A DNA stretch of 64,000 nucleotides from Escherichia coli (GTDB taxonomy: Bacteria > Pseudomonadota > Gammaproteobacteria > Enterobacterales > Enterobacteriaceae): NCBI RefSeq assembly GCF_022846255.1, contig NZ_AP025682.1; one strand, 5' to 3'. This document shows positions 1 to 6,695 of this stretch, piece after piece. Numbering within the stretch: position 1 is the stretch's first letter; each line of letters opens with the position of its first letter. Under the pieces are notes generated by a model, which did no database searches, had not been told where the DNA came from, and saw nothing but the letters and a program-made list of their open reading frames with translations. Made by a program: the position numbers and the translations under genes.

Positions 1-159
1 CTCACCGCTGCCAATCAGTGCTCCCAGCCCCGCCATCAGCACCGTACCGGGTAGAATCAAACCGACCAGCGCCAGCGACTCCAGAAAGGCCACCAATAAC
101 ACCGCCATCAATGAATACACGGTAGATTGGGTAATAAAGTGTTCCAGCAATGCTTGCAT
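1..159 (-). CDS. yabI: YabI (DedA-family inner membrane protein), 5' portion only; gene continues beyond window start
   Basis: Minus-strand reading from ATG (rc of cat at 157-159) gives MQALLEHFITQSTVYSLMAVLLVAFLESLALVGLILPG..., matching recalled E. coli YabI N-terminus; 85 bp from native araC stop as in K-12. Confidence 0.85.
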   Translation of the reverse strand, partial: MQALLEHFITQSTVYSLMAVLLVAFLESLALVGLILPGTVLMAGLGALIGSGE

Positions 160-244
160 AATGTGCCTGTCAAATGGACGAAGCAGGGATTCTGCAAACC
201 CTATGCTACTCCGTCAAGCCGTCAATTATCTGATTCGTTACCAA

Positions 245-294
245 TTATGACAACTTGACGGCTACATCATTCACTTTTTCTTCACAACCGGCAC
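245..294 (-). pseudogene. araC: Displaced araC 3' remnant: last codons (..AGCEEKVNDVAVKLS) plus native TAA stop, separated from the araC body by an insertion
   Basis: rc of 245-294 = gtgccggttgtgaagaaaaagtgaatgatgtagccgtcaagttgtcataa, identical to the araC 3' end as recalled from K-12/pBAD; no upstream in-frame continuation. Confidence 0.8.
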
Positions 295-313
295 AAAAGA
301 CACCCTCTGCCTA

Positions 314-736
314 TCATTCGATAGTCTCAAAATATTCCACCTGCAGAGAATCACGGTGCTCAATGATGCAATAACGCTGGAAATTATTTGCATAATCACT
401 TTTATCATGAAAAAACCATATACAATCGTTTTGTAGACTCGGTCCCATTCTTTTCAAAAAATCTATTAGCTTTGCTTTCTGAAGAAAAATGTTATCTATA
501 TTTCGCCATGTAACAATCACTCTTGTTTGCATATCATCAACATTATAGTAATAGCTATACTCGGCTACGTTTGATATGTTTGGCAAATTTCGCAAACTCT
601 CTGGCGTATAAAGGAAAAATGGGGAAAGTTCATGCTGTGTATAGTGATGTTCCTTTGACATCAATGAGATATAAGCATAGAAAAATATAAAGAATAAAAC
701 TAAAAATGATAATAAAATATAAATATATTTTGACAT
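314..736 (-). CDS. Hypothetical protein, 140 aa, with N-terminal hydrophobic transmembrane/signal-anchor segment; candidate immunity or accessory membrane protein
   Basis: ORF track; N-terminus MSKYIYILLSFLVLFFIFFYAYISL is a clear hydrophobic helix; ATG lies 6 bp after stop of upstream ORF (operon-like); no homolog recognised. Confidence 0.6.
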   Translation of the reverse strand: MSKYIYILLSFLVLFFIFFYAYISLMSKEHHYTQHELSPFFLYTPESLRNLPNISNVAEYSYYYNVDDMQTRVIVTWRNIDNIFLQKAKLIDFLKRMGPSLQNDCIWFFHDKSDYANNFQRYCIIEHRDSLQVEYFETIE

Positions 737-742
737 CTCTAC

Positions 743-1594
743 TCACGACCTGTGCGGATAATGAGGGTTTAAGAAAAGAAAAAGCGGTCTTTCAAAGGGA
801 GATTCTGAAAACTTTATAGCTCCCGAACTTGATAATGAACTATACAACTCATGATTTATTCTGTTTTTATCTTTATAATAATTAGTAACAGGTCTATTAT
901 TATATTGATTATATAACAATGTTGAAAAAGACTCATCTAATGGCTTTATATAATTTAACCATTCTGGAAGCTTCTTTTTTATTAGTTGATTTTTTTTAAA
1001 AGGAGGATGGGTTGTAAATAAGAATGGCGTAAACTCAGTATTTTTAAAATTCCCTGGCGCTCCATATGTATCCCATATTTGTAAGGCTTTTGTGTAAGAT
1101 AAAGGTTTTGCCAATAAAAGTGGATCGGGGCCTGTTCCAAATACACGATAAAAACCAATCAAGTCTGAGACTAAATCTTCTGCACTAAATCCGCTATCAG
1201 TATACCAGTTAAAAATAAATGAGTTTTGCCATGCTTCAAACCTCTTCGCAGTTCCATACATTAACGTTAAGGCAACTCTTGCTTTAAGAGTGGGTGAAAG
1301 ACATGAACGAACCATAACCTTCGTATAAACACCGGTATGAAATGTAAGATCTACTCCTAATATTTTTTTCCGAATTCCCATTTCCTGATGATAATCAACA
1401 GGAAAATACCAATCATGAAATTCATCGTAATATGTTGAAAAATGTTCTTGCTCCAATTTTCTTTTTAATATTCTGGCATCTTGTCCCTGAGCATGCCCCA
1501 AATCGATCCAACCTAACTCTTCGGTATAAACTAATCCATACTTTTTCGTTGTTGCAAATATTCCATCAGTAATATCGTTACGTTTTCTCATCAC
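743..1594 (-). CDS. Hypothetical protein ~282 aa (likely true start ATG at 1591 preceded by GAGGGGAG Shine-Dalgarno); no signal peptide; family not recognised
   Basis: ORF track (283 aa from GTG at 1594, ATG one codon downstream); rc upstream reads ...ttgaggggagattgtgatgaga; AT-rich codon usage atypical for E. coli core genes. Confidence 0.6.
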   Translation of the reverse strand: MMRKRNDITDGIFATTKKYGLVYTEELGWIDLGHAQGQDARILKRKLEQEHFSTYYDEFHDWYFPVDYHQEMGIRKKILGVDLTFHTGVYTKVMVRSCLSPTLKARVALTLMYGTAKRFEAWQNSFIFNWYTDSGFSAEDLVSDLIGFYRVFGTGPDPLLLAKPLSYTKALQIWDTYGAPGNFKNTEFTPFLFTTHPPFKKNQLIKKKLPEWLNYIKPLDESFSTLLYNQYNNRPVTNYYKDKNRINHELYSSLSSSGAIKFSESPFERPLFLFLNPHYPHRS

Positions 1595-2071
1595 AATCTC
1601 CCCTCAAAAAAAACGTATAGCAAATAATATCAATAAGGAAAAATATTATTTTTCAATATTTTTTTGTATACAATTCATTTTATGAATGAATTTACAAAGA
1701 TAGCTGCGCCTGATGCCGCTACACTTTTGCCAGACCATGTTCTCCTCTGAGGGAGTAACTGGCGTTTTTCATAGAATGCCGTACTTTTTTCAACAACTGC
1801 CACATCGAACGGCATTTATGGTGGCGTGAAGTGCCTGCCATAACCGCTCAATGTGGTGTTCCTACGATGAACAAACCGCTTGATATATTCTCCTGATGCA
1901 ACCGGACAATATGTTCATGATGGGTATCCCGATACATAAGCCTTCGTTTTATTTTTACAAAAAGAAATCGTTGTCGATATTTTATCAAGAAAAAAAATAA
2001 TTCAGGTAAAACGATTCAACTAAAAATAACTAAAATTAATCCCCCGTGAAATATATAAATAACGTCAGATG

Positions 2072-2104
2072 AAGAAAGCAAGGGGGTTCCCCCCCTTCTT
2101 TCTT
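2072..2104 (-). terminator. GC-rich imperfect inverted repeat (aagaaag..ggggg tt ccccccc..ctttctt) immediately 3' of the new araC stop; possible bidirectional terminator or insertion end structure
   Basis: Seen in sequence: gaagaaagcaagggggttcccccccttctttctt; flanked by T-rich tracts. Confidence 0.35.
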
Positions 2105-2105
2105 A

Positions 2106-2951
2106 TTATTCACAACCTGCCCTAAACTCGCTCGGACTCGCCCCGGTGCATTTTTTAAATACTCGCGAGAAATAGAGTTGATCATCAAAACCGACATTGC
2201 GACCGACGGTGGCGATAGGCATCCGGGTGGTGCTCAAAAGCAGCTTCGCCTGACTGATGCGCTGGTCCTCGCGCCAGCTTAATACGCTAATCCCTAACTG
2301 CTGGCGGAACAAATGCGACAGACGCGACGGCGACAGGCAGACATGCTGTGCGACGCTGGCGATATCAAAATTACTGTCTGCCAGGTGATCGCTGATGTAC
2401 TGACAAGCCTCGCGTACCCGATTATCCATCGGTGGATGGAGCGACTCGTTAATCGCTTCCATGCGCCGCAGTAACAATTGCTCAAGCAGATTTATCGCCA
2501 GCAATTCCGAATAGCGCCCTTCCCCTTGTCCGGCATTAATGATTTGCCCAAACAGGTCGCTGAAATGCGGCTGGTGCGCTTCATCCGGGCGAAAGAAACC
2601 GGTATTGGCAAATATCGACGGCCAGTTAAGCCATTCATGCCAGTAGGCGCGCGGACGAAAGTAAACCCACTGGTGATACCATTCGTGAGCCTCCGGATGA
2701 CGACCGTAGTGATGAATCTCTCCAGGCGGGAACAGCAAAATATCACCCGGTCGGCAGACAAATTCTCGTCCCTGATTTTTCACCACCCCCTGGCCGCGTA
2801 TGGTGAGATTGAGAATATAACCTTTCATTCCCAGCGGTCGGTCGATAAAAAAATCGAGATAACCGTTGGCCTCAATCGGCGTTAAACCCGCCACCAGATG
2901 GGCGTTAAACGAGTATCCCGGCAGCAGGGGATCATTTTGCGCTTCAGCCAT
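2106..2951 (-). CDS. araC: AraC arabinose regulator, C-terminally truncated (281 aa; ends ..[12 protein letters not shown] instead of ..AGCEEKVNDVAVKLS)
   Basis: ORF track translation from [23 protein letters not shown]... matches AraC; stop TAA at 2106-2108 is supplied by the inserted sequence. Confidence 0.93.
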
Positions 2952-4990
<2,039 letters not shown>

Positions 4991-6509: not shown

Positions 6510-6695
6510 GCATCAGGTATGTAACGCCTGATGCGACGCTGACGCGTCTTATCAGGCCTACACGCTGCGATTTTGTAGGCCGGATAAGCAAAGCGCATCC
6601 GGCATTCACCGCCTGATGCGACGCCGACGCGTCTTATCAGGCCTACACGCTGCGATTTTGTAGGCCGGATAAGCAAAGCGCATCCGGCACGAAGG
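6510..6695. repeat. REP/BIME cluster (two tandem copies of ~75-bp unit with gccggatgcg-type palindromes)
   Basis: Direct repeat of tgatgcgacgc(t/c)gacgcgtcttatcaggcctacacgctgcgattttgtaggccggataagcaaagcgcatccggca seen twice. Confidence 0.85.

Follow-up and report, generated by a model that had tools for sequence, protein, structure and literature searches.

Our analysis of a 64,000-nt window of Escherichia coli contig NZ_AP025682.1 points to an old composite islet of 1.8 kb that lies between the regulator gene araC and its neighbor yabI. It is likely that this islet, fixed in its lineage, occupies a conserved cargo-swapping spot after araC codon 281, that it left AraC undamaged, and that the two genes it carries are a predicted toxin pair. 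All coordinates below refer to this window, in which araC, both genes of the module and yabI lie on the minus strand. An earlier note on the same DNA, made from the sequence alone, had described the locus as a single insertion that truncates AraC.

Length of AraC

The araC gene (2106-2951, minus strand; start at 2951 following the RefSeq annotation of a 99.9% identical genome) comprises 281 codons plus TAA and covers the complete sensor and DNA-binding domains. As the earlier note had read it, the frame ends ..SEFRAGCE at the TAA in 2106-2108, and the protein is 11 residues shorter than in K-12 (281 vs 292 amino acids). The inference of a truncated AraC, in contrast, is not supported by our data. 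The araC loci of species representatives were fetched and each gene was read to its stop. In about 50 of these representatives, including Salmonella, the Citrobacter freundii complex, Klebsiella, Kluyvera, Raoultella, Kosakonia, Enterobacter and others, AraC is 281 amino acids long and ends RAGCE-TAA, which is the standard end across Enterobacteriaceae. The TAA is followed in these species by AAAGTGAATGATG.., a sequence homologous to K-12 codons 283 onward. AraC of 292 residues was found at the empty araC-yabI sites of Escherichia (E. coli, E. albertii and two other Escherichia species) and in the C. amalonaticus/sedlakii group; this form has GAA in place of TAA and reads 11 codons into sequence that is 3' untranslated region elsewhere. 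The distance from codon 281 to yabI is equal in the two forms (about 120 nt).

The solved AraC domains comprise residues 1-178 and 175-281, and the structure of the DNA-binding domain (PDB 2K9S) covers residues 175-281 exactly. Over its full length of 281 residues, the window AraC can be aligned to AraC from other genera, the identity being 92-95%. From these comparisons, 281 residues appear to be the ancestral as well as the majority length of AraC in Enterobacteriaceae, and the 292-residue AraC of K-12 appears to be a lineage-specific TAA-to-GAA stop-loss with an 11-residue read-through tail. Because 281 is the ancestral length and the solved DNA-binding domain ends at this very residue, the window AraC is to be regarded as complete and not damaged; judged by the alignment and the structure boundaries its folded domains are entire, and it should be active.

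Two contigs of about 6.5 kb assigned to Photorhabdus namnaonensis (L007) and Xenorhabdus szentirmaii (L008) also carry a K-12-type araC for 292 amino acids, with no yabI downstream and with the first 281 residues identical to those of the window AraC. These contigs look like pBAD-type vector contamination of the assemblies.

Occupancy of the araC-yabI spot

The earlier note had proposed a survey of other E. coli genomes for the same junction, and among 5426 complete E. coli genomes this junction indeed recurs: window positions 295-2108 are present in 486 of them, in one copy each, always between araC and yabI and at no less than 98.5% identity. Carriers include UTI89, S88, 536, ATCC 25922 and avian O1/O2:K1 strains, which belong to the phylogroup B2 lineages ST95, ST127 and ST73. 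Finding the same 1.8 kb once per genome at the same site in 486 complete genomes rules out an assembly artefact. The islet, found in many E. coli of uropathogenic type, is thus a fixed, lineage-specific and ordinary strain-variable island, neither a private mutation nor an artefact.

The site is contiguous and empty in 4334 of the 5426 genomes. In 572-582 E. coli genomes, among them SE15 and O25b:H4-ST131, the site is in a third state, with an island of 5.5 kb that encodes TctA, TctB, TctC, a PfkB-family kinase and a protein of the dihydrodipicolinate-synthase family; it probably serves sugar-acid catabolism. This transporter/kinase island starts at the araC stop codon and ends 8 nt short of the yabI ATG, and araC is again 846 nt long there, corresponding to 281 amino acids. 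The same island is found between araC and yabI in Klebsiella spallanzanii at 81-89% protein identity. Across the E. coli and Klebsiella loci it was recorded at L003/L004 3505-9083 and L081 8847-14424. The fourth state is an Stf-like chaperone-usher fimbrial operon, located right after the TAA of a 281-residue araC in a divergent Escherichia labelled E. coli SCPM-O-B-8794, which has about 93% DNA identity to the window (L006, 8847-16764). The operon comprises a major subunit, an usher, two chaperones and minor subunits, with no yabI within 8 kb.

All three occupied Escherichia states start within 1-5 nt of the araC stop and all yield a 281-residue AraC. The araC-yabI spot is consequently a recurrent cargo-swapping site with at least four states in Escherichia (empty, islet, transporter/kinase island and fimbrial operon), and the view of the earlier note that this is an unusual insertion into a core regulator gene is not supported, given four alternative states at the same spot. 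No paper describing the araC-yabI islet locus was found in a literature search by locus, by protein accessions and by the 281-residue AraC length.

Some further observations concern the same chromosomal region or the same cargo. A Citrobacter metagenome-assembled genome (HRGM_Genome_0066) contains an 8.4 kb contig (L066) with 99-100% protein identity to the E. coli transporter/kinase island, in addition to a Citrobacter-type araC locus on another contig (L025), and is probably a binning mix of E. coli and Citrobacter. In strain 1428_w1_hybrid (L005, 9081-10481) a deletion joins a 5'-truncated araC to a 5'-truncated araB, with loss of the ara regulatory region; this strain should be arabinose-negative. 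Between araA and araD the window carries, at 6525-6689, an 85-bp unit repeated 1.9 times at 98% identity, with REP/BIME-like palindromes, and its copy number differs between the window and the Escherichia with the fimbrial operon.

Composition of the islet

An empty-site E. coli genome (L002) aligns collinearly, at about 97% identity, with window positions 1-298 and 2102-3300 and lacks any counterpart of 299-2101. This single gap bears out the earlier statement that lineage-specific DNA separates araC from its K-12-type 3' end. The G+C content of the insert is 33.8%, against 53% for araC. In the araC sense the islet consists of an island remnant, an IS630 fragment, an upstream region of about 100 nt, a gene for a 282-residue protein, a gene for a 140-residue protein and, at its far end, the displaced araC tail.

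The island remnant (1898-2105, minus strand) is the right end of the TctABC/DHDPS-like/PfkB-kinase island. Its match to the araC-proximal end of the 5.5 kb island (L003) amounts to 97% identity over 2021-2108 and to 82% over 1900-1996, and a three-way alignment that includes the K. spallanzanii island shows that the intergenic region and the beginning of the kinase gene (ATG at 1937, roughly 15 codons) have been retained in the islet. These roughly 208 bp supply the TAA of araC and, directly after it, a terminator-like hairpin at 2080-2097 that was detected by a terminator scan. After about codon 15 the kinase remnant breaks into the IS630-like fragment (about 1700-1897, minus strand), a transposase pseudogene according to RefSeq, with 72-80% identity to ISEc33-like transposase genes on plasmids. 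It is followed by the cassette proper, which measures 1.4 kb and comprises its own upstream region with a promoter-like block (1592-1699, minus strand; ..ATTTG..N..TATAAA..AGGAG..ATG, recognized in the alignment of cassette copies), the 282-residue gene (743-1591, minus strand) and the 140-residue gene (314-736, minus strand). The co-oriented two-gene module of the earlier note is hereby recovered as two open reading frames. One insertion event of 1.8 kb that duplicated a 9-bp target is not supported for the segment, since island remnant, IS630 fragment and cassette are separate components.

The functional araC genes of islet and transporter/kinase island strains differ at only 11 of 843 positions, and nearly all differences from empty-type E. 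coli are common to both. The last 40 nt of araC contain 5 differences from empty-type E. coli compared with a background of 2.7% (P=0.005), and this divergent end is consistent with an imported 3' end.

No terminal inverted repeats were found at 295 and 2108, and the insert holds no intact transposase or integrase. The claim that transposase, integrase and terminal inverted repeats are all lacking thus holds for intact genes and for the repeats, but overlooks the IS630-family fragment. Nor did the open reading frame list or searches of NCBIfam, PADLOC, PHROGs and Pfam yield a tyrosine or serine recombinase in the insert. What is present of an insertion sequence or transposon is the fragment of about 200 bp, with no terminal inverted repeats and with a junction repeat that varies between 9 and 17 nt in length from lineage to lineage. 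IS630 elements duplicate TA. A simple transposon insertion was rejected on account of the missing terminal inverted repeats and of a repeat that is made of gene codons and differs in length between lineages.

On the far side of the cassette, the displaced native araC 3' end (245-298, minus strand) no longer belongs to any gene. It consists of the stop codon and the 11 codons EKVNDVAVKLS at 245-280, surviving apart from araC as reported before, followed by codons ~276-281 of the E. coli 292-type allele at 281-298. Native araC homology therefore covers the previously given remnant (245-294) and extends beyond it to 298, where the BLAST match of positions 1-298 to the empty-site genome ends. Next to it lies the native E. 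coli-type spacer of 85 bp (160-244), collinear with the empty-site genome and, as had been noted, present in normal form up to the yabI ATG at 157-159. Promoter-like matches facing yabI are located on the minus strand at 253-225 and 217-189. The 5' part of yabI itself (1-159, minus strand; RefSeq annotation of the 99.9% identical genome), encoding a DedA-family protein, forms the core flank; yabI is found downstream of araC in all relatives.

Junction repeats

The sequence TTCACAACC, corresponding to the codons G-C-E, occurs exactly at 281-289 (yabI side) and at 2109-2117 (araC side). In the functional gene it is followed by the TAA from the island side, and in the orphan by GAA, the stop-loss allele. 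Eight other exact repeats of 9-11 nt exist in the same 2.1 kb, and the 9-bp exact repeat alone is not above chance in this AT-rich stretch. We nevertheless take it as real because it is located at both junctions, because it extends to 20 of 25 matches (274-298 vs 2102-2126) and because it recurs in other genera. The 9-bp direct repeat of the earlier note is hence confirmed in its position, but not as a fresh target duplication, since it is also seen in Citrobacter and Salmonella.

In E. coli the araC-side copy reads TTTAGGGCAGGTTGTGAA-TAA and the yabI-side copy TTTTGTGCCGGTTGTGAA-GAA. The corresponding copies are CGCGCCGGTTGTGAA-TGA and CGCGCCGGTTGTGAA-GAA in C. farmeri, CGCGCCGGTTGTGAA-TAA and TGCGCCGGTTGTGAA-GAA in Citrobacter sp. 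ANG330, CGCTGGATGTGAA-TAA on both sides in C. freundii, and TGTGAA-TAA on both sides in Salmonella. In both clades of the 292-residue type, the cassette-bearing genomes combine a 281-residue AraC, with TAA or TGA as araC-side stop, with an orphan tail that carries GAA. The 9-bp repeat thus appears, from these alignments, to be the exactly matching part within a 15-25-nt duplication of araC codons ~276-281; the copies represent different alleles of the same codons, and for this reason the bases beside them differ.

The repeat boundary is at the same place in all cassette-bearing lineages, which points to one old junction or to a site-specific process rather than to independent random insertions. 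Each repeat pair matches the synonymous sites of its host. We tentatively attribute these host-like copies to recombination and conversion with empty alleles up to the homology border. Since the cassette is flanked by a repeat of the last araC codons in Citrobacter and Salmonella as well, the junction repeat is an old feature and not a fresh target-site duplication.

Related cassettes

Homologues of the 282-residue protein with about 69% identity exist in Citrobacter freundii/portucalensis, C. farmeri, another Citrobacter and Salmonella enterica. The gene pair is located between a 281-residue araC and yabI in C. freundii (L086-L089), C. farmeri (L091), Citrobacter sp. (L096) and Salmonella (L090), and a second copy of the last araC codons closes the cassette on its yabI side in all these loci. 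Across the cassette loci, identities amount to 69-79% for the toxin-like protein, 38-63% for its partner and 92-96% for AraC, with the E. coli copy being the most distant. A cassette diverging beyond its flanks is consistent with, without proving, old vertical presence and repeated loss.

The same cassette is also found between araD and polB in Trabulsiella and another enterobacterium (L092, L095 4001-5285), and more distant versions are located next to IS4 in Rahnella and between ndh and ycfJ in Yersinia. Every cassette copy, also at the araD-polB site, shares an alignable promoter-like block that covers the proximal ~70 nt before the start codon. Among the copies compared, neither terminal repeats nor conserved cassette ends were found, and no target duplication at the araD-polB site. 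This other end of the ara operon is variable in its own right; in Citrobacter and Salmonella a DUF4751 gene is located there (L086 2209-2592).

The two islet genes

The 282-residue gene is intact in the window, and its product is predicted to be a CapCone-DUF4056 protein of the Lipocone superfamily, as judged from homologues, motifs, hhalign and an AF2 model. The Pfam profile DUF4056 (PF13265) matches the window protein at E=0.46, below significance; among 30 relatives 20 reach E<=0.1 and only one reaches <=0.001 (best 1.8e-6). No NCBIfam or PADLOC match was found, and PHROGs returned only a non-significant match to a family of unknown function (E 0.16). DUF4056 has been defined as the family CapCone-DUF4056 in the Lipocone paper (Burroughs et al., eLife 2025, doi 10.7554/eLife.108061), in which the CapCone signatures are a Gly six residues before the helix-2 His, S/GxxSxx before the helix-4 Asp, and a beta-hairpin clasp. 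Invariant in the 30 relatives are G27/H33 (GWIDLGH) and S133/S136/D139 (SGFSxEDLVS; in the window S133-G-F-S136-A-E-D139). In the AF2 model (pLDDT 83) strands 20-23 and 27-30 lead into helix 31-48, a hairpin 60-95 lies between helices 2 and 3, and D139 begins helix 139-151; going by the modelled secondary structure only, the CapCone beta-hairpin clasp and cap appear to be present. The alignment of the family against the published CapCone-DUF4056 member WP_159450857 by hhalign gave 87% probability and E 3.8e-6 with the motifs aligned, and Foldseek against AFDB retrieved DUF4056-named entries at E 1e-16 to 1e-42 as well as the C-terminal region of an RHS-repeat protein. From the invariant motifs and the modelled hairpin, together with these matches, the 282-residue protein probably belongs to the CapCone-DUF4056 (Lipocone) family. 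The cassette genes had not been characterised previously.

A homopolymer of eight T (983-990; A8 in the coding sense) lies inside the gene. In the 99.9% identical genome (L001) T7 takes the place of T8, resulting in a frameshifted 202-residue allele (WP_001334072). The cluster of 282-residue alleles (P0001) has 963 members and that of 202-residue alleles (P0006) has 385. The tract could reflect slippage-driven on/off switching or simple decay.

The 140-residue protein has a transmembrane helix at residues 2-26 and a folded alpha/beta domain (AF2 pLDDT 87). No match to it was found in Pfam, NCBIfam, PADLOC or PHROG, and a word-indexed homologue search returned only near-identical E. coli copies; orthologues were therefore collected from open reading frames neighboring the 282-residue homologues. 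The E. coli partner has 38-45% identity to these orthologues, compared with 68-69% for the 282-residue protein in the same loci. The partner gene is adjacent and co-oriented in the E. coli, Salmonella, Citrobacter, Trabulsiella, Rahnella and Yersinia loci, and even the partner beside the Yersinia homologue is homologous to the 140-residue protein (hhalign 95.7%). Its predicted topology would face the periplasm, and it is predicted to be immunity-like. A defence system was set aside, as neither protein had a PADLOC match.

In the Lipocone paper, the CapCone families are scored under 'biological conflict' and the immunity proteins of Lipocone toxins are membrane or periplasmic (doi 10.7554/eLife.108061). 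A DUF4056 bicistron in a Salmonella type VI secretion system (T6SS) island has been proposed as an effector (PMC11669294). On these two grounds we consider it slightly better than an even bet that the gene pair is a toxin and its immunity protein, acting on envelope lipid-linked substrates in the periplasm of competitors.

Origin and function of the islet

In the scenario that we favor, homologous recombination through the core genes on either side would have maintained or transferred the cassette, and conversion against empty alleles would have kept each repeat copy similar to its host. A B2 ancestor would have carried the transporter/kinase island, an IS630-family insertion would have broken the kinase gene of this island at about codon 15, and an IS630-associated rearrangement would have made the E. 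coli islet. As for function, the 282-residue protein may be a toxin that reaches competitors through contact-dependent delivery, for instance by type VI secretion, and attacks lipid head groups or lipid-linked precursors of the envelope in their periplasm; the 140-residue protein would then be its immunity factor, facing the periplasm.

Several observations weigh against this combined scenario. The order of events in E. coli is one that we infer, and part of the island remnant reaches no more than 82% identity to the island of the ST131 type. The scenario also gives no mechanism for first making the 15-18-nt duplication. With respect to function, no secretion-system gene, PAAR, VgrG or delivery domain was found in window positions 1-3300 or in related loci, and a link to delivery is suggested only by the RHS-protein fold relative and by the proposal for the Salmonella T6SS island; among the best 150 family representatives, nearly all are standalone, with lengths of 100-360 amino acids; no signal peptide is present in the 282-residue protein, and solved structures offer no significant match to its model; its gene is paired with one for a 140-residue anchored protein, whereas the published CapCone-DUF4056 contexts mostly contain an outer-membrane beta-barrel gene; and about a quarter to a third of the E. 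coli copies are frameshifted, so that the toxin-like gene may be decaying there.

Part of this evidence fits a different function, in which the two genes encode an endogenous envelope enzyme, modifying lipid or peptidoglycan precursors, and its membrane partner, or else are a decaying remnant with no current role. The missing secretion apparatus and delivery domains, the mostly standalone relatives (a search for delivery-domain fusions among 1.84 billion representatives retrieved almost only standalone proteins) and the common frameshifted allele all agree with such a role, and many Lipocone families are housekeeping enzymes (doi 10.7554/eLife.108061). The 'biological conflict' score of the CapCone families, a partner that evolves much faster than the enzyme, the patchy and strain-variable distribution at hotspots in many genera and the fold relative on an RHS protein speak against it, and on balance we regard this alternative as possible though unlikely.

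Concerning the origin, the cassette state could instead be ancestral in Escherichia and the C. amalonaticus group, with an orphan TAA that drifted to GAA before a deletion between the repeats produced the 292-residue AraC. It is true that only the two 292-residue clades have cassette members with an orphan GAA and a functional TAA or TGA, and that recombination between the repeats would yield exactly the K-12 sequence (AGGGCAGGTTGTGAA-GAA for a precise deletion). However, E. albertii and two other Escherichia representatives are empty and of the 292 type, and parsimony favors an empty 292-type E. coli ancestor. An excision hybrid of the B2 allele, for which a synthetic hybrid junction served as query, was found in 0 of 5426 genomes (best full-length match 95.8%), plain stop-loss in an empty site accounts for the same data, and a repeat of 9-15 nt is short for RecA-dependent deletion. 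An ancestral cassette is consequently improbable. Slightly less credible still is a docking cycle, in which the last codons of araC form a reusable site where a compact, recombinase-less toxin cassette, or other cargo, moves in and out by a dedicated or host mechanism that duplicates ~15-18 nt and brings a new stop, one such cycle, with an orphan stop that mutated before excision, having made the 292-residue AraC of K-12. If true, it would reveal the source of the 292-residue K-12 AraC used throughout molecular biology.

We likewise give little credence to the cassette being an integrase-less site-specific mobile unit that uses a recombinase in trans, inserts at the last codons of araC and brings its own stop. 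The same boundary (about codon 276/277 to stop) in five lineages with repeat pairs host-matched at synonymous sites, the restoration of the gene end by the incoming side and the presence of the cassette at other sites (araD-polB, ndh-ycfJ and beside IS4) could be accounted for in this way. No recombinase, conserved terminal motifs or inverted repeats were found, though, and no target duplication is evident at araD-polB; the E. coli araC-side junction belongs to the other island and not to the cassette, and the co-variation of the repeats can arise by conversion against empty alleles up to the homology border.

The first reading of the locus, a single recent foreign insertion of two genes with a 9-bp target-site duplication and a truncated, possibly impaired regulator, has the exact repeat at both junctions and the AT-rich insert between araC and its K-12-type tail in its favor, but is hardly tenable given that the insert is composite, that the repeat belongs to an imperfect duplication of 15-25 nt, which recurs in three genera with a sequence specific to each host, that the stop after the araC-side copy cannot derive from a 292-type target, that AraC ancestrally has 281 residues, the point at which the solved DNA-binding domain ends, and that the islet is fixed in 486 genomes at at least 98.5% identity.

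The old composite islet that we favor has consequences beyond this locus. For annotation, the AraC of B2-type E. coli would be an ancestral-length protein and not a damaged one, and the K-12 tail, for which the locus offers an explanation, lies outside the solved DNA-binding domain. The gene pair would be an intact predicted Lipocone toxin/immunity candidate for inter-strain competition, fixed in major extraintestinal pathogenic lineages (the UTI89, S88, 536 and ATCC 25922 types); in ST131 a metabolic island replaces the toxin-like islet. The araC-yabI interval may thus serve as a model locus for the exchange of integrase-less islets, since it accepts several cargos at one precise position and its state determines how long a core regulator is.

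Comparison with known systems

The AraC proteins of Salmonella and Citrobacter, 281 amino acids long, have a C-terminus identical to that of the window AraC at 92-95% protein identity. Unlike in these genera, the sequence after the stop is island DNA in the window, and the E. coli read-through tail is located 1.8 kb away.

Pangenome hotspots hold alternative cargo between the same two core genes. The araC-yabI spot resembles the core-gene-flanked hotspots of E. coli in its four alternative states, its lack of mobility genes and the fixation of each state in a lineage. It differs from them in an araC-side border that is unusually exact (1-5 nt from the stop for three cargos) and in that its state sets the length of a regulator.

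SGI1 at trmE and the dusA islands (PMC8409611) are examples of genomic islands whose integration site is the 3' end of a protein gene, which they rebuild. The islet shares with them a direct repeat of the last codons of the gene, as well as a gene end and stop supplied by the incoming side with the native araC end displaced to the far side. In contrast to SGI1 and the dusA islands, it has no integrase, excisionase or mobilisation genes, measures 1.4-1.8 kb instead of tens of kb, and its spread is best explained by flanking homologous recombination.

With the CapCone-DUF4056 family the 282-residue protein has in common G27/H33, S133/S136/D139, a hairpin leading into the His helix and a soluble character, whereas its enterobacterial clade has an extra C-terminal region of about 80 residues. 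Orphan effector/immunity pairs that act in the periplasm include Tae/Tai and Tle/Tli of the T6SS, and the streptococcal TelC/TipC pair with its lipid II phosphatase. The cassette is like these pairs in being bicistronic and strain-variable, in a 282-residue putative effector that has no signal peptide, and in a small, faster-evolving partner that would be exposed outside the cytoplasm. It differs in that VgrG, PAAR, Hcp, an adaptor or LXG/WXG are not found nearby and in that its toxicity is a prediction.

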